Assembly (NCBI GenBank): GCA_045128835.1 | Contig: JBGVRX010000002.1 | Location: forward strand, 44,145 to 108,144 | Direction: 5' to 3' | DNA length: 64,000 nt | Source of the DNA: Bacilli bacterium | GTDB taxonomy: Bacteria; Bacillota_I; Bacilli_A; RFN20; DUOF01 | In this document: piece by piece, positions 27,511 to 55,790 of the stretch | Layout: each line of letters begins with the position of its first letter | Numbering within the stretch: position 1 is the first letter of the stretch | Made by a program: the position numbers and the translations under genes | The notes under the pieces: model-generated | What the model was told of the DNA's origin: nothing | The model's input: only the letters and a program-made list of their open reading frames with translations | The model's database searches: none

Positions 27511-29880
27511 TTATAATGTTTCAATATATTTTTTGATGTTAGATAAATTAACGATATTTTGAACTTCGTTGTTTTTGATAACTACTAGTGTAGGAGCTTG
27601 TTTTACTCCGTATTTTTTAGTTAATTCAACTTTTTCTTCAGCATCTACGAAGTTGAATTTAGTAGATGATTTATCTAATAATTTTTCAGCCATTCTACAG
27701 TTAGGACAAGTTTTTGTTCCAAATAACATTATTTCATCTTCACTTACAGAAGTTGTAGTTGAAGTTCTTGAAGTTGCTGTAGTAGTTGTAGTTGTTTTAG
27801 GTGAAGAAGAACAACTTAAGTCGTAATTCTTTCTGTTTTTGTATTCTTGAGTCTTACCATCGTTCCAGTTTTTAACAGGACGGTAGTAACCAGTGATTCT
27901 ACTGTAGATTTCAGTTTCAGCACCACAGTCAGGACATGTAGATACTTCACCGTTAATATATCCATGAGTTCTACAAATTGAATATACTGGAGATAATGTA
28001 TAGTAAGGTAATTTGTAGTTTTCAGAAATCTTTCTTACTAGGTTAGCAGCAGATTTCCAATCTTCTAATCTTTCACCTAAGAATGCATGGAATACAGTAC
28101 CAGAAGTATAAAGAGTTTGTAATTCATCTTGAATATCTAATGCTGCGAACATATCATCAGTGTATCCTACTGGAAGGTGAGAACTGTTTGTATAATAAGG
28201 TGTTTCTCCTTCTTTTGCAGCAGTGATTAAATCAGGATATAAACTCTTATCTTTCTTAGCAAAACGATAAGTAGTAGATTCAGCAGGAGTAGCTTCTAAG
28301 TTATATAGATCACCATATTCTTCTTGATAATCTGACAATTTTTCTCTCATGAAGTTAAGAACGTTCTTAGTGAATTCTTGTGCTTCTGTTTCTGTTAAAT
28401 CTTTCTTAATCCATTTAGCATTTAAACATGCTTCATTCATACCAACTAATCCGATTGTAGAGAAGTGGTTATTGAATGTACCTAAGTATCTTCTTGTATA
28501 TGGATATAATCCTTCATTTAATAATTTTGTAATAACATTACGTTTGATTTTTAAACTTCTTGCAGCTAAATTCATCATGTTTTCTAATCTTTCATAGAAT
28601 TCTTTTTCTGTTTTAGCTAAGTATGCGATACGAGGAATATTGATAGTTACAACACCAATTGATCCTGTTGATTCACCACTACCGAAGAATCCTCCTGATT
28701 TCTTTCTAAGTTCTCTTAAGTCAAGTCTTAAACGGCAGCACATACTACGAACATCACTTGGTTCCATATCACTATTGATATAGTTAGAGAAGTAAGGTGT
28801 TCCGTATTTTGCAGTCATTTCAAATAATAATTTGTTGTTTTCTGTTTCAGACCAGTCGAAGTCTTTTGTGATTGAATAAGTTGGGATTGGGTATTGGAAT
28901 CCTCTTCCGTTAGCATCTCCTTCGATCATTGTTTCGATGAATGCTTTGTTTACCATATCCATTTCTTTTTGACAATCTTTATATTTGAAGTCAACTTCTT
29001 TACCTCCAACGATACAGTTAAGTTCTGCTAAATCGTTTGGAACAGTCCAGTCTAATGTGATGTTTGTAAATGGTGCTTGAGTACCCCATCTACTTGGTGT
29101 ATTAACACCATATATAAATGATTGAATACATTGTTTAGTTTGTTTGTATGTTAAATTATCGATTTTTACAAATGGTGCTAAATAAGTATCGAATGATGAG
29201 AATGCTTGAGCTCCAGCCCATTCATTTTGCATGATACCTAAGAAGTTAACCATTTGGTTACATAAAGTTGATAGGTGTTTAGCAGGAGATGATGTAATCT
29301 TTCCAGGAATGCCTCCTAAACCTTCTTGGATTAATTGTTTTAAACTCCATCCAGCACAATAACCTGTTAACATTGAAAGGTCATGTAAGTGGATGTCACA
29401 GTTACGATGAGCATCAGCAATAGCGTTATCATAAACTTCACTTAACCAGTAATTAGCAGTAATAGCTCCAGAGTTTCCTAAAATTAATCCGCCTACTGAA
29501 TAAGTAACAGTAGAGTTTTCTTTAACTCTCCAGTCAGTAACATTTAAGTAACTATTCACTACATCTTTATAATCTAATACTGTAGATTTCATGTTACGCA
29601 TTTTATCGTGTAATTTACGGTATAGGATGTAAGCTTTAGCGACATCTCCATAACCAGCACTAATTAAAACGCTTTCAACGCTATCTTGGATGTCTTCAAC
29701 ATCTACGATATTATCTTTTACTTTGCTTTCGAAATTAGCAGTAACTTTTAATGCTAAGAAATCAATGATGTTTTCATCATATACTTTATTCTCAGCTTCA
29801 AATGCCTTAGTTATTGCTTCTGTGATTTTTTTGATTTCAAATGAAACTATTTTTCCTTCTCTTTTTCTTACTTTAAACAT
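27511..29880 (-). CDS. nrdD: anaerobic ribonucleoside-triphosphate reductase (class III) with a C-terminal glutaredoxin/NrdH-like domain attached via a poly-Thr linker
   Basis: N-terminal ATP-cone and an IHLHDL active-site region. Zn-ribbon CPDCG plus the glycyl-radical motif SRITGYY. Then PKTTTTTTATSRTSTTTS, followed by a thioredoxin-fold domain with CPNC. Confidence 0.9.
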   Translation of the reverse strand: MFKVRKREGKIVSFEIKKITEAITKAFEAENKVYDENIIDFLALKVTANFESKVKDNIVDVEDIQDSVESVLISAGYGDVAKAYILYRKLHDKMRNMKSTVLDYKDVVNSYLNVTDWRVKENSTVTYSVGGLILGNSGAITANYWLSEVYDNAIADAHRNCDIHLHDLSMLTGYCAGWSLKQLIQEGLGGIPGKITSSPAKHLSTLCNQMVNFLGIMQNEWAGAQAFSSFDTYLAPFVKIDNLTYKQTKQCIQSFIYGVNTPSRWGTQAPFTNITLDWTVPNDLAELNCIVGGKEVDFKYKDCQKEMDMVNKAFIETMIEGDANGRGFQYPIPTYSITKDFDWSETENNKLLFEMTAKYGTPYFSNYINSDMEPSDVRSMCCRLRLDLRELRKKSGGFFGSGESTGSIGVVTINIPRIAYLAKTEKEFYERLENMMNLAARSLKIKRNVITKLLNEGLYPYTRRYLGTFNNHFSTIGLVGMNEACLNAKWIKKDLTETEAQEFTKNVLNFMREKLSDYQEEYGDLYNLEATPAESTTYRFAKKDKSLYPDLITAAKEGETPYYTNSSHLPVGYTDDMFAALDIQDELQTLYTSGTVFHAFLGERLEDWKSAANLVRKISENYKLPYYTLSPVYSICRTHGYINGEVSTCPDCGAETEIYSRITGYYRPVKNWNDGKTQEYKNRKNYDLSCSSSPKTTTTTTATSRTSTTTSVSEDEIMLFGTKTCPNCRMAEKLLDKSSTKFNFVDAEEKVELTKKYGVKQAPTLVVIKNNEVQNIVNLSNIKKYIETL

Positions 29881-29884
29881 AAAC

Positions 29885-30613
29885 TTACCTCTTTCCTCTC
29901 CCCCTAATTGTTACATTAGGATATCTTCTTTCTAATTTTTTTTCGATTTCTAGTAATTCAGCATCGCTAAACCCACTTAATCCTTTTTGTAAAACTGTAT
30001 CGCAATCTCGATAATTTTGAATGTAGAATTTAACGCTTGGACCTAGATAGTCTAGAATTTCTTCAATATTTTCGAAACTATGCAACTCTTTTACTACAGT
30101 TGTTCTAAACTCATAGTCGATATTAGATGATTTAAGAACATCAATACTTTCTTTTATATCATCTAAACTTACTTTTGCTCCGGAAGTAACATCATACTTT
30201 GAAAAAGTGTTTTTTACATCCATTGCTACATAATCGATCAGGTTACAATCAATTAGTTTCTTCAATATTTTTGGTTTGCTACCATTAGTGTCCAATTTAA
30301 CTTTATAACCTTTCTCTTTTATTTTTCTAATGAACAGTTCAATATCTTTCTGTAATAGTGGTTCCCCTCCACTAATACATACTCCATCAATCAACCCCTT
30401 TCGTTTATCTAAATAATCAAATAAAACCTGCTCATCAATTTTATTTGAGTCATTAGCACCTTTAATCAAGCCACTGTTATGACAGAACGGACATTTAAAG
30501 TTACACCCTTGAGTGAAAATTATACATGCCGTATGTCCAGGAAAATCAACCAATGTTAATTTTTGAAAACCACTAATTTCCATAATTGTATTTGTTTCCT
30601 CCAAATTTAACAA
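29885..30613 (-). CDS. nrdG: anaerobic RNR activating enzyme (radical SAM)
   Basis: CNFKCPFCHN radical-SAM cluster motif, 242 aa. Confidence 0.85.
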   Translation of the reverse strand: MLNLEETNTIMEISGFQKLTLVDFPGHTACIIFTQGCNFKCPFCHNSGLIKGANDSNKIDEQVLFDYLDKRKGLIDGVCISGGEPLLQKDIELFIRKIKEKGYKVKLDTNGSKPKILKKLIDCNLIDYVAMDVKNTFSKYDVTSGAKVSLDDIKESIDVLKSSNIDYEFRTTVVKELHSFENIEEILDYLGPSVKFYIQNYRDCDTVLQKGLSGFSDAELLEIEKKLERRYPNVTIRGRGKR

Positions 30614-32549
30614 AACCTACATTGTTCTCTATTAAATGATTAATAATGTTTAATATATCTTTTTGTTTACTACTCTTAGATAAATTTACTATTACTAAAT
30701 TTCCTCCTGTTAGTAGTGATTGATATTTTCCAATGTAGTAGAAGTCTTCTTCTTTGTTTGATTTGAATTCGAATAAACTATCGATTCTTGAATAATGTTC
30801 TTTATCGGTGATTTTCTTTCTGATTCCATATATTGATTTATCTAATTCCATTAATTTCTTTAATGGACGACGTTTGCTTGTTTCGCTGACAACGAAATTC
30901 ATTTTGGTTTCTTTTGTATATTTTATGCACTGTTCTTTTACGTAATTTATAATACTTACTAATAATTCTTTTTGTTTTATTTCATCTTTTTCTAAATTTA
31001 AGACACATTCGCTTAGACCTGCAAGTTCTAAGTTTAAAACACCTTTTTTGATAATCTTTCTGATCTTTTGACTGCTTTCTAACTTTTCGTCATCAATGAT
31101 ATTTCCGTTAAATAATATTTGGTAATTATCTTTACTCTTATCACCAATGATTTCAAAGATATTAACTAAGCAGTTTTTAGCCATTTCTAACCAACCATCA
31201 AGAGCTAGGTAGAAATCTTTGATATCTTTATTTTCGTACTTAAACCCTAGTCTACCCATATTTACTGAAACAGAAGCTACAATCATTCTTCCAGTAGATT
31301 CGTTTTCTTCATAAACATAATTTTCATAAACTCGGTGTCCATTACTGAAGTATTCGGTATTTTCTAAATTGTAACTAGTATTTATATTAGCTAAAGCAAT
31401 GTTTTTTTCTTCAATAATTAAACCGCTTACTTTATTTAATAAATCTTTATTGGTATCTTTACTTATTTTATAGATGGTAGTTATATTTTCTAGTCTATCC
31501 ATCTTTTCTAAGATAGATAAGTAAGTTTCATTTATTAATGTTCCATCTAATGAAGTATTTCCTCCTAAACTAATTGAATACTTTTTGTTTTCTAAGTAAT
31601 TGTTGTTTAGATTGTTTAGCAGTACTTCAAGTGAATTAACTAGTAGACTTTTTATGTATTTCATACTGTCACTATAAGCTAAATCGAATATTTCTTCTGT
31701 TTTTTTGTTAAGAATAAAGTTATCAAATAAAGTTTTCTCAAAATAAATACTGTTTTGTTTATCGATGATTTCTTCGATTCTTTTGATATTTATATATTCT
31801 AAATATCCAGTTAAATCTAAGTATTTATTTAAATTGCTTTTTAATTCTTCTTTAAATTGTTCGCTAACATAAGGTAGTAACAAATGATCTAATGCGTCTA
31901 TGCATATTTCACCATCAATTTCTAGTTTTACATTTAAGGCATTAAATATTAAGTCATTTGGGAAACTCTTGTTAATGTCTTTTGTAAAAATTGGGTGAGT
32001 TGATGATAACTTACCTAGATTGAAGTAATCTAAGTTATGTATGTATAAATTTCCTTCTTCGTGAGATCTAACATACTTGTTATCTAAAACAAAAGCTTTT
32101 GTATATTCACATGATATGGTTTTTCCAAAATCCAAAAGGATTTCATTTGGGGTACTATCTTTTTTGAATTCACCAATACGTTCAATTGCTTTTGCAAATT
32201 TGTGTTGTTGTCTTAAACCAAATACTTTTCTAGAAGTTGCTCTTCTAATTCTGTAATCACTAAATGCCTCATAAACATCGGTGAAATTGTTTTCTTTTAA
32301 TTTTGTTTCTATAATATCTTGTATATCTTCAACATTGATAGTCTTTCTATCTATGTAAGTGTTGTTGATGAAATTTAGAACGTCTGCGTAAACTTTATTA
32401 ATTCCAGGTTCAGAATTAATAGGTCTAACTTGGTCGAAGGCTTTTTTGATTGCTACAGCAATTTTGGTGCTGTTGAACTCAACTCTTTGACCGCTTCTTT
32501 TGACGACAACTAAATCTTTTAAGATATTTTTTATGTTCTCCCCAGCCAT
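30573..32549 (-). CDS. NrdD-like paralog: ATP-cone plus truncated/degenerate class III RNR core lacking the catalytic Cys and the glycyl-radical domain
   Basis: N-terminal ATP-cone (VVKRSGQRVEFNSTKI). LYIHNLDYFNLGKL aligns to the NrdD IHLHDL..GYCAGW region but the catalytic Cys is replaced. No RxxGY and no Zn ribbon. Overlaps nrdG by 41 nt. Confidence 0.6.
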   Translation of the reverse strand: MAGENIKNILKDLVVVKRSGQRVEFNSTKIAVAIKKAFDQVRPINSEPGINKVYADVLNFINNTYIDRKTINVEDIQDIIETKLKENNFTDVYEAFSDYRIRRATSRKVFGLRQQHKFAKAIERIGEFKKDSTPNEILLDFGKTISCEYTKAFVLDNKYVRSHEEGNLYIHNLDYFNLGKLSSTHPIFTKDINKSFPNDLIFNALNVKLEIDGEICIDALDHLLLPYVSEQFKEELKSNLNKYLDLTGYLEYINIKRIEEIIDKQNSIYFEKTLFDNFILNKKTEEIFDLAYSDSMKYIKSLLVNSLEVLLNNLNNNYLENKKYSISLGGNTSLDGTLINETYLSILEKMDRLENITTIYKISKDTNKDLLNKVSGLIIEEKNIALANINTSYNLENTEYFSNGHRVYENYVYEENESTGRMIVASVSVNMGRLGFKYENKDIKDFYLALDGWLEMAKNCLVNIFEIIGDKSKDNYQILFNGNIIDDEKLESSQKIRKIIKKGVLNLELAGLSECVLNLEKDEIKQKELLVSIINYVKEQCIKYTKETKMNFVVSETSKRRPLKKLMELDKSIYGIRKKITDKEHYSRIDSLFEFKSNKEEDFYYIGKYQSLLTGGNLVIVNLSKSSKQKDILNIINHLIENNVGFVKFGGNKYNYGN

Positions 32550-51154: not shown

Positions 51155-51189
51155 GTAATTAACAATTAAGTAATGAGAGGATATGAAAA

Positions 51190-51807
51190 ATGGAAAAAGA
51201 TGGATCGAAAAAGAAAAAGAATAAAAATGTGTTTACGGAATATTTTAGGTGGCCATTAATAGTTTTGGCAGTTTCTTTATTTTTATCATTTTCTTTTAGT
51301 TTTCTTAGTGAATTAGCATTGAGTAATGCTAGTTTAGTAGTAGCTATTTTAGTTATTGTGTTCTTTATGTTTGTATCAATAATAACTGACGCTATTGGTG
51401 TTGCAGTTACTGCAGCAGTGGAAGTGCCTTTTAGAGCAATGGCTGCTAAAAAAGTAAAAGGTGCGAAAGAAAGTATTATTTTAATTAATAATGCAGATAA
51501 GGTTGCAAGTATTATTGCAGATATCTTAGGTGATATTTGTGGTATCTTATCAGGAGCCGCAGGTGCAGTTGTTACAGCTAAACTTATTGAAGGAGTAACA
51601 GACTCAATGCAACTTGTAGTAATAGCATCTATGGTTAGTGCAGTTATCGCAGGTGTAATTATCTTTGGTAAAGCCATGGGTAAAAAAGTAGCTTTGGATA
51701 ATTGCGATAAAATAGTGCTTATGATAGGTAAAATAGTTTATATATTTACTTTTGGTAAATTATCACTAAAGAATAAAAATCCAAACAAACAACAAGGGTC
51801 TAATTAA
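51190..51807 (+). CDS. small 4-TM membrane protein with DxxxD motifs in TM helices, OapA-like (OLE-associated protein A)
   Basis: 205 aa; 4 predicted TM helices. TM2 has ITDAIGV. TM3 has ADILGDICG, a DxxxD motif. Located directly 3' of the large ncRNA. Confidence 0.5.
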   Translation: MEKDGSKKKKNKNVFTEYFRWPLIVLAVSLFLSFSFSFLSELALSNASLVVAILVIVFFMFVSIITDAIGVAVTAAVEVPFRAMAAKKVKGAKESIILINNADKVASIIADILGDICGILSGAAGAVVTAKLIEGVTDSMQLVVIASMVSAVIAGVIIFGKAMGKKVALDNCDKIVLMIGKIVYIFTFGKLSLKNKNPNKQQGSN

Positions 51808-51885: not shown

Positions 51886-52443
51886 ATGTATTATAGAATA
51901 AGTTGTGATGCTGAAAATTACAGAAATTATATTTTAAAAAAAGAAGAAGTTAAAGAAGGCGACGAACTTTATCGTGACAAGTTTGATGGCAGTTCTCAAA
52001 AAGATAATTATGAAACACAAACTTTTGTAATGACAAGAAAAAGAGAAGTAAGTTTTCCAGTAGCAGATATATTTTTTAGTGATCTTCCTATTTGTAGTGA
52101 AAGAGCAAAAGAAGTTATAGAAAGTATTTGTAATGAGGGAGAGATAGAATTTTTACCATGTGAAGTAGAAGCAACAGAAGGTAATTATTATATTTTAAAT
52201 GTACTGGGTGCAGAAGATTGCGTTGATTATGATAATTCGGATTTTGTTAGATTTTCTAGTGGTAGAATAATGTTTTTTAATCATATAAAGTTTAATAAGA
52301 AAATAGAAAGGCACTTTTTTAGAATTACAGATTTAATTAATGGTTTTTATTTTATAAGTGAAGAAACTAAAGAAATTTTAGAAAAAGCTGATTTGAAAGG
52401 TTTAGTTTTTGATAATAGTTTATTTATAGAAAAGAGTAACTAG
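51886..52443 (+). CDS. hypothetical protein (possible immunity/accessory protein)
   Basis: 185-aa soluble ORF between the ncRNA/oapA locus and the RiPP cluster. Confidence 0.4.
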   Translation: MYYRISCDAENYRNYILKKEEVKEGDELYRDKFDGSSQKDNYETQTFVMTRKREVSFPVADIFFSDLPICSERAKEVIESICNEGEIEFLPCEVEATEGNYYILNVLGAEDCVDYDNSDFVRFSSGRIMFFNHIKFNKKIERHFFRITDLINGFYFISEETKEILEKADLKGLVFDNSLFIEKSN

Positions 52444-52522
52444 TGTTTTAGAGGCACAAACCTTAGATATATCTTGAATAAAGGGCACTTTTGTGGTAGC
52501 ATTAGTGCATAGAGGTGATAAC

Positions 52523-52609
52523 ATGGATATTAAAATTGAAGATGTTTTAGACTTAGAAGTTGCATTAGTAGACAACTGTGGCTGCGCTAATGGCGGAGAC
52601 AAGTGTTAA
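52523..52609 (+). CDS. RiPP precursor peptide, 28 aa: MDIKIEDVLDLEVALVDNCGCANGGDKC (acidic leader plus Cys/Gly-rich core)
   Basis: ATG at 52523 is preceded by RBS gaggtga (52513-52519). Stop TAA at 52607. Not in the ORF track (too short). Directly upstream of two rSAM/SPASM genes. Confidence 0.6.
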   Translation: MDIKIEDVLDLEVALVDNCGCANGGDKC

Positions 52610-52634
52610 TTTAAAAAAAATTTAATAAGAAAAG

Positions 52635-52667
52635 GCATAACAGTTTTATTAAATTGTTATGCTTTTT
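52635..52667 (+). terminator. Intrinsic terminator/attenuator immediately after the precursor gene
   Basis: gcataacagttt-tatt-aaattgttatgc 12-bp stem (1 GU) followed by a T5 run. It lies between the precursor stop and the next gene's RBS. Confidence 0.6.
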
Positions 52668-52688
52668 AGTTATTCAAAGGAGAAGTAT

Positions 52689-53111
52689 ATGAAAAAAATA
52701 TGCAATTTAAGCCAAAGTAAAATAGAATTAAAAGGCTTTTTAGAAGATAAATTAGAAAATATGGGATCTAGTGATTTTAATGTGTTAGTAATAGATGATC
52801 AAAAGGAAAATAAAGGATTAGTAATTAAATATCAAGATAAACTAGATTGTGTTATATTAAATGATTACAAAGGGAATCTTAATGACATCTTTTTTGTTCC
52901 TGTTGTTATAACTAGTGAAGTTAATAATGCTCCTCAATATTTTTACTGTAAAGATAATATTGAAGAAGTTCTTTTGGATATTGAAAAGTTTAGTAATGCT
53001 ATACCTAATATGAGAAGAATTTCAGCGGAAGAAATTTCATGTAAGATGGTTGATTTAACATCTAAGAAAAAGAAAGGCAATTCTAATAAATTAAAGATAT
53101 TGGTAGGGTAA
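52689..53111 (+). CDS. hypothetical 141-aa protein in the RiPP operon
   Basis: RBS aaggaga lies 5 nt upstream of the ATG at 52689. The track start 52659 lies inside the terminator hairpin. Confidence 0.45.
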   Translation: MKKICNLSQSKIELKGFLEDKLENMGSSDFNVLVIDDQKENKGLVIKYQDKLDCVILNDYKGNLNDIFFVPVVITSEVNNAPQYFYCKDNIEEVLLDIEKFSNAIPNMRRISAEEISCKMVDLTSKKKKGNSNKLKILVG

Positions 53112-53115
53112 GAGT

Positions 53116-54315
53116 ATGTATAGAGGCTATTTAATTGATTATAGAAAAGAAAACGATGATTTATATATCTTAAAAAATAAAAAGAGCGGGGTTTATTATT
53201 ACTCTAACTATGTTGCTACTAGAGTTTATGAATTATTAGATAAAAGAGTTAGTGTTAAAGAAATAGTAGAAACTTTAGCTAAAGAATATAATGCTCCTAT
53301 TTATTTTATGGAGAAGATGGTTTTAATGGCTATTTCTCAAATTCAAAGTAAAGAAGATGCTGTACATTGGAAACAAGAGTCTAAATTCCCTTTAAGAGTA
53401 TCTTGGAGATTAACAGATCGATGTAACTTAAAGTGCTTACATTGTTACGCTACTTGTGAAAGTGAAGCAAAACAAAAAGAATTACCTTTAGAAACAATAA
53501 AATCAATCGTAGATAAATTAGAAGAAGCAAATATTTTTGAAATCTCTTTAACAGGAGGAGAAATATTTGTTAGACATGATTTAAAAGAAATAATTGAGTA
53601 TATTAATTCTAAGAATATTACTTTAGCTTTATTTACTAACGCCACATTAGTTTTAAGTAACTATGAGTGGTTAAAAGAATGTCATATTAGAAGATTTAAT
53701 ATAAGTTTAGATGGATTAGAAGAAGAACACGATTTATTAAGAGGAAAAGGTAATTTTAAAAGAACAGTAGATGCGATAAAACTTTTACAAAAAGATGGGG
53801 CAAGAATAGTAATAAATTGCGTTATTAACTCTTTAAATGTTCATAGGCTAGTAGAAATATTGCATTTCTTTGTAGATAATAAATTAGAATTCCAATTTTC
53901 ATTGATGACTCCAATTGGAAGAGGGGCAGATAACATTGATATCGTTCCTAAAAAAGAAGTTTATATGGAAGCAGTTAAGAAGTTACAAGAAGAATATGAA
54001 AAACTTAAAATAGCGGGATTTATTCATAATGCTTATACTGGAGAGGATTTGCAAATTGATGAAGATGGAGAAACTACTGTTAGTGAAGATAAATGGGTAT
54101 GTAATGCTGGTACTACTAAGTTTGATATAGATGTTAATGGTGATGTCTATTGTTGTCCATTTAGTAAGAGTAGTTTTGTAGGTAATATTGTAGATAAAAC
54201 AGTAAAAGAGTTATGGGAAAATGAGAGTAGATTTAATTTTATTAATTTCACTAAGACATATAATGGAAGATTCTGTAAACCAATAGGAGATACAATGAAT
54301 GAACAAAATAAGTAA
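53116..54315 (+). CDS. radical SAM/SPASM-domain peptide-modifying enzyme with an N-terminal RRE/PqqD-like extension
   Basis: CNLKCLHCY (CxxxCxxC). SPASM region CNAGTTKFDIDVNGDVYCCP...C. The ~95-aa N-terminal region contains a VSVKEIVETLAKEY..P wHTH-like segment. Confidence 0.85.
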   Translation: MYRGYLIDYRKENDDLYILKNKKSGVYYYSNYVATRVYELLDKRVSVKEIVETLAKEYNAPIYFMEKMVLMAISQIQSKEDAVHWKQESKFPLRVSWRLTDRCNLKCLHCYATCESEAKQKELPLETIKSIVDKLEEANIFEISLTGGEIFVRHDLKEIIEYINSKNITLALFTNATLVLSNYEWLKECHIRRFNISLDGLEEEHDLLRGKGNFKRTVDAIKLLQKDGARIVINCVINSLNVHRLVEILHFFVDNKLEFQFSLMTPIGRGADNIDIVPKKEVYMEAVKKLQEEYEKLKIAGFIHNAYTGEDLQIDEDGETTVSEDKWVCNAGTTKFDIDVNGDVYCCPFSKSSFVGNIVDKTVKELWENESRFNFINFTKTYNGRFCKPIGDTMNEQNK

Positions 54316-55636
54316 TCAAGTATTAAAACTGTCACAAAATTTAAAATTTTTAGAAGTTAATGAAAAAGTATCTATTTGTTACAATAAAAATGCTTTTAAA
54401 CCAGTATTATTACCTAATTCAGTTAGAGAAAACTATTTAAATGGTCTTAGAGAAATAAATAATCCGGATGAAAATATTGTAAAGATGTTTACTAATAATT
54501 ATATTGGCTTTTTTGATAAGGAATTAACTAAAGAAGAAATATATAGTAAGTTAAAACAAGATTATGATAAGAAAGAATCTACTTTAAATGTTAGATTTAT
54601 TCCAAGTTATAATTGCGATAAGAATTGCTCTTATTGTTTAATTCAAAATATAAGAGGTCAGATGAAAGAGTCTTTTGATCTTAGTTATTTAGATAATTTA
54701 AAAAATCTTGTAGATATTTATAAGAAGAGTACTCCTAATTTAAATAAAGTTAGCGCTACTATTATTGGAGGAGAACCTACTTTAGATAAGAACTGGGATA
54801 TTACTAAAAAGTTCATCAATGAGCTAAATAAGTATTTTGATAAAAAAGAACATGTTCTAGTTACAAATGGGTATGGAGTTAATGAATCATTATTAAAAGA
54901 GTTTAAGGATATGGGCGGTAAATCTGTTTACTTATCATATGATTTAAGAGGTAATGTTATAGATGATAGTGAGCCGGAATCTAAGTCTAATTTTGAAAAA
55001 TTTAAGAGTTTGTGCCTTTTAGTAGTTAATAATGGTGTTTCTTTGACAGTAGATTTTAAATGTAATAAAGATACTAAAATAAATGAAACCGTTAAGTCTT
55101 TCTTGGATAATCTTATCTCTTTAGATTCTTCAATAAATATTGTCGCATCTAAAATAGTATCTCAAAAAGAATATGATGTTTTAGAAAGCCCTCAATGTCA
55201 AAGGTATGAACTTGTAGATTTAAAAGAGGAAGATATATTGCCTGTATATTATGAGTTTATAAATTTATATCCTTATAATTTTTCTTATCCTAGACAATTT
55301 GAAATAATGATTTATAGATGCTCTACTGTATCAATGAAATCATTTGTAGTATTCCCAAATGGAAAAGTATCTTTATGCGGTAAGTTATATTCCTCAAATC
55401 CCGATAATATACCTTATATTTATGATTTTAAAACAAGTGAATTTAACTTTGAGTTAACTGAATCGTTTTGTAAGACAGTGTTAGATGATGAAGAATGTAA
55501 AGAGTGCGAGTATTCACTTATTTGTGGAGGCAAGTGTCCTTTTAAAAAAGGAAAATGTGATAAAGAAAAAATAAATGTAGAGTTATTACTAGAAATTTAT
55601 AAAAGCAATATAAAAAGACAATTAAATAAAAAGTAA
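54299..55636 (+). CDS. second radical SAM/SPASM-domain enzyme, translationally coupled to the first
   Basis: YNCDKNCSYC radical-SAM motif. C-terminal SPASM cysteines CKECEYSLICGGKCPFKKGKC. Overlaps the upstream gene by 17 nt. Confidence 0.85.
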   Translation: MNKISNQVLKLSQNLKFLEVNEKVSICYNKNAFKPVLLPNSVRENYLNGLREINNPDENIVKMFTNNYIGFFDKELTKEEIYSKLKQDYDKKESTLNVRFIPSYNCDKNCSYCLIQNIRGQMKESFDLSYLDNLKNLVDIYKKSTPNLNKVSATIIGGEPTLDKNWDITKKFINELNKYFDKKEHVLVTNGYGVNESLLKEFKDMGGKSVYLSYDLRGNVIDDSEPESKSNFEKFKSLCLLVVNNGVSLTVDFKCNKDTKINETVKSFLDNLISLDSSINIVASKIVSQKEYDVLESPQCQRYELVDLKEEDILPVYYEFINLYPYNFSYPRQFEIMIYRCSTVSMKSFVVFPNGKVSLCGKLYSSNPDNIPYIYDFKTSEFNFELTESFCKTVLDDEECKECEYSLICGGKCPFKKGKCDKEKINVELLLEIYKSNIKRQLNKK

Positions 55637-55660
55637 GATGCAAATTTAGCATCTTTTTTA
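55635..55660 (+). terminator. rho-independent terminator closing the RiPP operon
   Basis: aagatgc-aaattta-gcatctt hairpin followed by a T6 run. Confidence 0.7.
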
Positions 55661-55790
55661 TTGCTGGAAAAAACTTTGTTTTCATGAAAAGTATGCTTGT
55701 GGCATAAAAGATAAGACTGAATGCTCTAGAATGAAAATTTCTTCTTTCATTTTATATATTTCTATAATATAATTGAAGTAGGTGATTTAG

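Follow-up and report, generated by a model that had tools for sequence, protein, structure and literature searches.

A 28-codon gene beneath an antisense open reading frame as the probable precursor of a radical-SAM-modified peptide in a Bacilli bacterium

A stretch of 64,000 nucleotides (nt) from a Bacilli bacterium (assembly GCA_045128835.1, contig JBGVRX010000002.1, positions 44,145 to 108,144 of the forward strand; hereafter the window) carries at position 52523 of its plus strand a 28-codon open reading frame (ORF), which is almost certainly a real gene and very probably encodes the precursor of a ribosomally synthesised and post-translationally modified peptide (RiPP) matured by radical S-adenosylmethionine (SAM) enzymes. 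It is followed on the same strand by the genes of an accessory protein and of two radical-SAM enzymes, here named rSAM1 and rSAM2. What sets the locus apart is its pairing of two different radical-SAM enzymes with a previously unseen accessory family, together with the obligatory Asp-x-Cys at the C-terminus of the peptide.

Short precursor genes fall below the length limits of gene callers, so that a cluster for a peptide natural product then passes for a set of orphan radical-SAM enzymes. Clusters of this kind are regularly brought to light by genome mining. In the locus described here, the hidden gene makes a coherent four-gene module of a very rare family out of a pair of unexplained enzymes and an uncharacterised protein. 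With about 3.2 kb and an 11-residue core, it is a compact test case for the action of two radical-SAM enzymes on Cys-...-Asp-x-Cys-COOH and for the contribution of the accessory protein.

Conservation and Coding Capacity of the 28-Codon Gene

Because the peptide is too short for a profile search, its relatives were located by way of rSAM1 and the accessory protein. A total of 17 homologous loci (L001–L009 and L090–L097) were fetched, which make 18 together with the window. A small ORF was present directly upstream of the accessory gene in all of them, with ten distinct peptides encoded (Table 1). The gene order was constant as well: the peptide, an accessory protein of about 140–200 amino acids (aa) and rSAM1 were encoded on the same strand in 18 of 18 loci, with rSAM2 further on wherever the fetched DNA reaches.

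All ten distinct peptides end in Asp-x-Cys directly before the stop codon, and another invariant Cys is located 7–10 residues upstream. In the numbering of the window, the invariant positions are C19, D26 (position −3) and the C-terminal C28. C21 belongs to the window core and is not found in every relative; the core Gly is not conserved across the family (e.g., SCAGEAHNDSC), whereas the Asp is. Among the ORFs of 20–70 aa on both strands of the window, the D-x-C-stop ending was found only in the ORF encoding MDIKIEDVLDLEVALVDNCGCANGGDKC. The N-terminal part of the peptides, the presumed leader, has the consensus L-[EK]-[DE]-[VI]-[LF]-x-[LVF]-[EK]-x-x-L, which is shared with the distant members.

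Table 1. Distinct peptides encoded by the small ORFs of the 18 loci.
Peptide	Loci
MDIKIEDVLDLEVALVDNCGCANGGDKC	window, L091, L093
MDIKIEDVLDLEVAYVDNCGCANGGDKC	L001, L002
MNIKIEDVLDLEVAYVDNCSCANGGDKC	L092
MNKNKKKVKVTKTTLKDVLKVKTNLSLSCAGEAHNDSC	L003–L006
MKKAKKVAITKATLKDVLKVKTHLSLSCTGQAHNDAC	L007
MKKAKKVTVTKTTLKDVLKVKTSLSLSCSGEAHNDAC	L097
MNEKFDFEISGEDLEEIFALEEKLVSTCGCAQCGGSDKC	L008
...ILEESIEDIFELEEKLVSSCGCAQCGGSDKC	L090
MEQILVVEGNESLEELLEFESELVSTCSCIGSDKC	L009
MEQILVVEENESLEELLEFESELVSSCTCNGSDKC	L094–L096

The substitutions between loci were evaluated with a binomial test of synonymous codons. The gene of the window differs from that of L001, whose rSAM1 is 87% identical, by 8 nt that affect seven codons, six of them synonymously (P about 3e-4, where a fraction of 0.19 would be expected to be synonymous). 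Synonymous changes were likewise in excess between L003 and L007 (13 of 22 changed codons, P about 4e-5) and between L008 and L090 (13 of 26, P about 4e-4). The window and L001 are 91% identical over the coding sequence, in comparison with 57% over the 83 nt upstream and 79% over the downstream spacer. By this measure of codon substitution, the peptide gene is shown to be under purifying selection.

The gene had been proposed in a first-pass annotation, made from the window alone, as a Cys-rich peptide gene hidden under a spurious antisense ORF. Frameshifts or stops in its frame in related genomes, together with preservation of the antisense ORF, had been named beforehand as the observation that would speak against it. 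The opposite was found: the plus frame is kept open in the homologues, with mostly synonymous change and invariant Cys, Asp and Cys residues, and it is the antisense ORF that is frameshifted, stopped or absent. That the minus-strand ORF of 60 aa should be the real gene and the plus-strand ORF accidental can practically be discarded. At a minimum length of 60 aa it is the one ORF listed there, and its overlapping part is open in close relatives, but it has a TTG start without a Shine-Dalgarno site; in L001 and L002 its frame is shifted, in L092 it contains stops, and in L003 no antisense ORF reaches 20 aa. The shift in L001 and L002 is caused by a 2-nt indel between the ribosome-binding site and the ATG of the peptide gene, and because of it the antisense sequences of the window and L001 are unrelated beyond the overlap. 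Within the overlap, the same DNA differences give three amino-acid changes in the minus frame versus one in the plus frame; that the antisense ORF stays open there in close relatives is due to wobble positions common to both frames.

Start Codon, Expression Signals and Public Annotation

In a list of ORFs of at least 20 aa, the plus frame was shown as 38 aa long, extended to a GTG at 52493. In L001, L002 and L092, an in-frame TAG is located directly before the ATG, which leaves 28 codons only; for this reason the ATG at 52523, and not the GTG at 52493, is the conserved start. The well-placed GAGGTGA described in the first reading of the window was located 4 nt before this ATG, with 7 nt from the last G of GAGG (52515) to the ATG (Table 2), and a Shine-Dalgarno sequence (GGAGG or GAGGTG) was found 4–9 nt before the ATG in 11 of 11 loci inspected.

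Public gene calls are heterogeneous. The gene is uncalled in L001, L002 and L092, in agreement with its previous description as unannotated, but a 38-aa version starting at the upstream GTG is called in the close relatives L091 and L093, and genes of 35–39 aa are called in most distant loci. With 87 nt, the gene is below the 90-nt minimum of Prodigal. A further inconsistency in the annotation of short genes was observed in L096, where the 35-aa precursor (2662–2769) is uncalled, though the identical sequence is called in L094 and L095. No family was retrieved at an E-value of 1 or better when the peptide was compared with the NCBIfam precursor models, a weak negative, as models of this length are insensitive.

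A sigma-A promoter ahead of the peptide gene is inferred from the conservation of its hexamers (Table 2). The hexamers and the TGn element keep their position in L001 and L002 (TTGAAT-17 nt-TGaTAATAT), where the surrounding upstream DNA is 57% identical. In a consensus promoter scan, this putative promoter was below the threshold (8 of 12 matches).

Table 2. Features of the locus in the window.
Feature	Position	Strand	Remarks
Putative sigma-A promoter	52474..52502	+	−35 TTGAAT (52474–52479), 17-nt spacer, extended −10 TGgTAGCAT (52494–52502)
Ribosome-binding site of the peptide gene	52512..52518	+	GAGGTGA, read from the sequence
Probable precursor peptide gene	52523..52609	+	28 codons plus stop, ATG...TAA; translates to MDIKIEDVLDLEVALVDNCGCANGGDKC
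Leader (putative boundary)	52523–52573	+	about residues 1–17
Core (putative boundary)	52574–52606	+	about residues 18–28, NCGCANGGDKC
Spurious antisense ORF	52420..52602	−	60 aa, TTG start, no Shine-Dalgarno site
Terminator-like hairpin	52634–52662, then TTTTT to 52667	+	stem type GGCATAACA...TGTTATGCC; between the peptide and accessory genes
Accessory protein gene	52689..53111	+	140 aa, family not known
rSAM1 gene	53116..54315	+	399 aa; PqqD/RRE N-terminus; CX3CX2C at C103/C107/C110; partial (Twitch-like) SPASM with C329/C347/C387
rSAM2 gene	54299..55636	+	445 aa; CX3CX2C at C106/C110/C113; full 7-Cys SPASM with C341, C360, C400-x2-C403-x5-C409-x3-C413, C420

The peptide gene is located 79 nt upstream of the accessory gene, and the interval contains a terminator-like hairpin followed by a run of T, with an RNA folding energy of −19.2 kcal/mol and a z-score of −5.5 versus shuffled sequences. 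L001, L092 and L093 have a hairpin with a T-run at this position, and so do L003 and L007, whose stem is unrelated in sequence; this recurrence suggests that the structure itself is selected. A clear hairpin with T-run is missing in L008, L090 and L009, in which the peptide is kept. A consensus terminator scan missed the hairpin of the window, whose AU-rich stem and long apical part lie outside the limits that the scan sets for the loop and for G-C pairs. A comparison of the region with Rfam returned no family, only a sub-threshold chance match to the 6A small RNA (E = 0.27). With regard to the accessory gene, its mechanical ORF start (52659) falls inside the hairpin, and the true start at 52689 is indicated by the homologues and by the ribosome-binding site AAGGAG (52677–52682).

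The Radical-SAM Enzymes and the Accessory Protein

The maturase context described for the peptide gene was confirmed, with rSAM1, which has a PqqD-type RiPP recognition element (RRE) and a partial SPASM domain, and rSAM2, with a full seven-Cys SPASM domain, both downstream on the same strand. The peptide gene had been placed immediately 5' of the maturase genes; it is indeed upstream of them in the same orientation, but the 140-aa accessory gene and the hairpin intervene.

The architecture of rSAM1 is that of RiPP maturases, namely RRE, radical-SAM domain and auxiliary-cluster domain. Its Pfam matches were PqqD (30.9 bits, cut-off 23.4), SPASM (31.2 bits, cut-off 21.5) and Radical_SAM. The residues invariant among relatives of 40–99% identity include, in addition to the cysteines of Table 2, C114 and C235. 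The absence of the CX2CX5CX3C block that belongs to a full SPASM suggests that rSAM1 has one auxiliary cluster, of the Twitch-like kind. The nearest solved sequences were SkfB (1.5e-16), MoaA and SuiB. An AlphaFold2 (AF2) model of rSAM1 (mean predicted local distance difference test score, pLDDT, 77; predicted template-modelling score 0.79) presents three strands and then three helices in residues 7–77, which is the topology of an RRE. The best full-length Foldseek matches of this model were SkfB (1.3e-15), CteB and SuiB, all of them RRE-bearing RiPP maturases, two of which form thioethers. Among the best 25 of 86 NCBIfam matches, those to TIGR04053, MftC, WgkB, StsB, AlbA, SkfB and others were all far below their cut-offs.

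The second enzyme, rSAM2, matches Radical_SAM and the SPASM domain TIGR04085, and its three CX3CX2C cysteines and seven SPASM cysteines are kept in all relatives. Identity to the corresponding enzyme is 36% for L003 and, over the available part, 45% for L008. No solved relative was found by sequence. The best of its 21 NCBIfam matches, nearly full length, were TIGR04463 (58.2 bits, cut-off 525) and Clo7bot TIGR04334 (48.8 bits, cut-off 600).

The accessory protein gave no match with Pfam or NCBIfam. Its AF2 model (pLDDT 74) contains a confident alpha/beta domain (residues 1–105) and a low-confidence tail from residue 108. The tail, RISAEEISCKMVDL, is predicted to be disordered yet is the most conserved segment of the protein, with the motif P-x3-[RK]-I-x-[SA]-E-[ED]-[ILV]-S-C-[KR]-M-[IV]-[DS] and an invariant Cys; the N-terminal domain, by contrast, is poorly conserved, with 17–33% identity to distant relatives. 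The tail may become ordered on binding, with either of the two radical-SAM enzymes as the most plausible partner.

Distribution and Organisation of the Homologous Loci

To date the family has been found only in metagenome-derived contigs and metagenome-assembled genomes. Among 5.8 billion clustered proteins, rSAM1 has about 13 close relatives (40–99% identity), the lower matches being generic SPASM enzymes, and the accessory protein has 17. A HMMER search for the accessory protein over all 1.84 billion proteins retrieved 12 representatives, about 11 of them credible. A match of 1371 aa to the accessory profile (P0227) was rejected as a repeat protein matching by chance. When the GTDB species representatives were scanned with the rSAM1 profile, the best 80 of 583 confirmed loci reached at most 33% rSAM1 identity, and the rSAM1 family appears to be absent from these genomes as judged by sequence identity. 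The exact look-up of the window rSAM1 gave no identical sequence on record. A metagenome scan with the accessory-protein profile yielded one new locus, L090, confirmed against the first sequence only.

Two forms of the locus were recognised. The compact form (the window, L001–L007, L091–L093 and L097) consists of peptide, accessory protein, rSAM1 and rSAM2. In the extended form (L008, L009, L090 and L094–L096), two alpha/beta hydrolases and a carbamoyltransferase are encoded between rSAM1 and rSAM2, and some of these loci also have a GT2 glycosyltransferase, an acyl-carrier protein, two ABC exporters or a LytTR response regulator. The extended form points to a more heavily tailored product.

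Proposed Maturation of the Peptide

Three general features of radical-SAM RiPP systems are present: an ORF with translation signals adjoining enzyme genes, co-occurrence in 18 of 18 loci, and a maturase that combines an RRE with an auxiliary Fe-S cluster domain. In our judgement it is highly probable that the ORF encodes the precursor of a peptide modified by radical-SAM enzymes. The leader motif, which extends to distant members, is compatible at the level of sequence with recognition by the RRE; an RRE usually takes up its leader as an extra beta-strand. The acidic segment of the leader had additionally been described as helix-like, for which no support was obtained.

The following pathway is proposed. 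Transcription would be driven by a promoter some 20 nt ahead of the ribosome-binding site, and most of the transcripts would be short, stopped at the hairpin and T-run, leaving the precursor in excess; read-through would yield the accessory protein and both enzymes. It is established for lantibiotic and sactipeptide operons that incomplete termination keeps the transcript of the precursor more abundant than that of the enzymes. The leader (about residues 1–17) would then dock on the N-terminal RRE of rSAM1, and both radical-SAM enzymes would abstract hydrogens in the core of about 11 residues, so that the thiols of C19 and C28, and of C21 where present, would be joined to carbons of other residues. 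The invariant Asp at position −3 would be the likeliest acceptor, giving a beta-thioether of the ranthipeptide type; alternatively, an alpha-thioether of the sactipeptide type to Gly or another residue could be formed, as with SkfB or StsB. The accessory protein would probably dock on one of the enzymes via its conserved tail, which is disordered in the monomer model. In the compact locus, leader removal and export would depend on unlinked functions; the larger loci L008, L009, L090 and L094 come with ABC exporters and extra tailoring enzymes.

A thioether involving the Asp is suggested by analogy and is held only tentatively, at slightly less than an even chance. Freyrasin, the product of PapB, contains Cys-to-Asp beta-thioethers, and in NxxcA the acceptor is located upstream of the Cys (PMC8326336); PapB accepts Cys-Xn-Asp with n = 0–6 (PMC9413430).

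Several observations weigh against the precursor reading or limit what can be said of the product. The core is unusually short, and the number of residues between its first Cys and the Asp varies from five to nine, with D-x-C-COOH alone fixed. PqqD was detected by Pfam in the three closest rSAM1 sequences only; the N-terminal residues are conserved throughout the family. No linked protease, exporter or immunity gene was found in the window. Moreover, neither enzyme reaches any curated family cut-off, and in combination with the missing precursor match this makes the chemistry of the reaction unreadable from homology. Radical-SAM chemistry is unpredictable without close characterised relatives (PMC10288494).

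Alternative Explanations

The peptide could instead be a scaffold comparable to MftA or PqqA: the radical-SAM enzymes would alter its Asp-x-Cys, which would then be cut out as a small sulfur-containing metabolite or redox cofactor. The strictly fixed features at the extreme C-terminus only, like the Val-Tyr of MftA, are in accordance with this possibility, as are the MftC model, which with 121 bits is among the four best NCBIfam matches of rSAM1, and the small-molecule tailoring functions of the larger loci (GT2, cf. MftF; acyl-carrier protein; two alpha/beta hydrolases; carbamoyltransferase). On the other hand, the MftC score is far from the cut-off of 265 bits and SkfB, CteB and SuiB are better structural matches; the window holds no peptidase or flavoenzyme able to release such a product; the invariant Cys near position −10, together with the conserved small core residues, speaks for a role of the entire core; and the presence of ABC exporters in L008 is more in keeping with secretion of the product than with a cofactor. 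A scaffold is considered unlikely. The same low likelihood is given to a fuller form of the scaffold reading, in which both enzymes convert the Asp-x-Cys by the logic of mycofactocin or PQQ but with another chemistry, the accessory protein is an adaptor of a family not seen so far that docks through its Cys-bearing tail, possibly providing an Fe-S ligand, and the larger relatives glycosylate, carbamoylate or acylate the product.

It has also been considered whether the ORF is an attenuation leader that senses Cys-tRNA supply or ribosome stalling and thereby controls the terminator ahead of the enzyme genes, with the true substrate elsewhere, for example in the Cys-containing tail of the accessory protein. 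The three Cys codons near the end of the ORF, with the terminator-like hairpin 24 nt later, would be expected of such a leader, and the accessory tail, as the most conserved part of its protein, with an invariant Cys and predicted disorder, could be taken for a substrate. Against this, the fold gave no sign of an antiterminator formed by alternative pairing with part of the ORF, and selection on the amino acids extends along the whole peptide, leader motif and Asp included, beyond the Cys codons. Besides, L008, L090 and L009 keep the peptide without a clear hairpin and T-run, the RRE of rSAM1 calls for a leader-bearing peptide substrate, and the accessory protein, with a conserved tail behind a variable N-terminal domain, is organised in the opposite way to most precursors. 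Attenuation is rated as very improbable, well below the scaffold.

Comparison with Known Systems

The precursor and its enzymes were compared with the characterised groups of radical-SAM peptides. As in the ranthipeptides (SCIFF/thermocellin-CteB, freyrasin-PapB and NxxcA-NxxcB), a short Cys-containing precursor is accompanied by an RRE-bearing radical-SAM/SPASM enzyme in anaerobic Firmicutes, and CteB is among the three top structural matches of rSAM1. The core cysteines and invariant Asp may follow the Cys-to-Asp beta-thioether logic of freyrasin, with a variable spacing between the first Cys and the Asp, and D-x-C, with its acceptor upstream of the Cys, resembles the N-x-x-C of NxxcA (PMC8326336, PMC9413430). 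In contrast to the ranthipeptides, there is no match to SCIFF or any curated precursor, no curated ranthipeptide maturase is found among the best 25 of 86 matches of rSAM1 or the 21 of rSAM2, and rSAM1 does not have the CX2CX5CX3C block of the SPASM motif. Furthermore, the locus has two radical-SAM enzymes instead of one, a unique accessory protein, a core of about 11 residues and an obligatory C-terminal Cys.

Among the sactipeptide systems (SkfA-SkfB, subtilosin-AlbA and StsA-StsB), the maturase SkfB is the best match of rSAM1 by sequence and by structure and shares with it the layout of RRE, radical-SAM domain and single auxiliary (Twitch-like) cluster. The window core, CxC...GG, is reminiscent of the StsA core, CxCxC...GxGxG (PMC10288494). 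Nevertheless, rSAM1 is well outside the sactipeptide maturase equivalogs (107 versus 625 bits for StsB, 88 versus 850 for AlbA and 76 versus 300 for SkfB), and these systems have no counterpart of the additional full-SPASM enzyme and accessory protein found here.

Mycofactocin (MftA/MftB/MftC) is similar in its precursor of about 30 aa with decisive C-terminal residues, and the GT2 of the larger relatives is comparable to MftF. It differs in that its C-terminus is V-Y and not D-x-C (D-K-C in the window), in its separate MftB in place of the fused RRE, and in the score of rSAM1 with TIGR03962 (121 versus 265 bits). No homologues of MftD or MftE are present, and the host, probably an anaerobe of the class Bacilli, is not an actinobacterium.

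The closest models of rSAM2, TIGR04463 and Clo7bot (TIGR04334), are by name radical-SAM/SPASM maturases of peptides. The rSAM2 scores are about one tenth of the cut-offs, and both families are themselves uncharacterised. An association of these systems with Cys-rich precursors in Firmicutes is suggested by the model name (rSAM_vs_C_rich). Within the literature library searched, no description of the core motifs or of the family was retrieved, and no paper on Clo7bot was found.

Genomic Setting

The upstream neighbour of the module is a gene for an Imm11 immunity protein, found in the window (51886–52443), L091 and L093; its place is taken by a SUFU-like gene in L001 (6003–6584), L002 (9817–10398) and L092. 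The adjoining orphan genes of the polymorphic-toxin immunity type suggest that the module lies in a variable island of inter-bacterial conflict. Downstream come a 158-aa gene of no known function and a VanY-type peptidase gene on the other strand. An extra 335-aa gene is present between rSAM2 and the 158-aa gene in L093 (3884–4891); the corresponding interval of the window (55637–55790) is devoid of it.

The locus is chromosomal: the window carries the genes of NusA, IF-2, PNPase and anaerobic NrdD, and a blastn comparison with a phage collection gave no match. The PNPase shares 72% identity with that of a metagenome-assembled Bacilli bacterium, and the host is probably an uncultured anaerobe of this class. 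Two NrdD-like ORFs are located nearly in tandem on the minus strand (27511–29880 and 30573–32549), the second of which matches the NrdD models only in parts.

Another pair of long antisense ORFs was observed at 51159–51677 (minus strand) and 51190–51807 (plus strand). The plus-strand ORF, of 205 aa, has a weak CNNM-like match and is conserved in L091, for which reason its 172-aa minus-strand partner is probably spurious.

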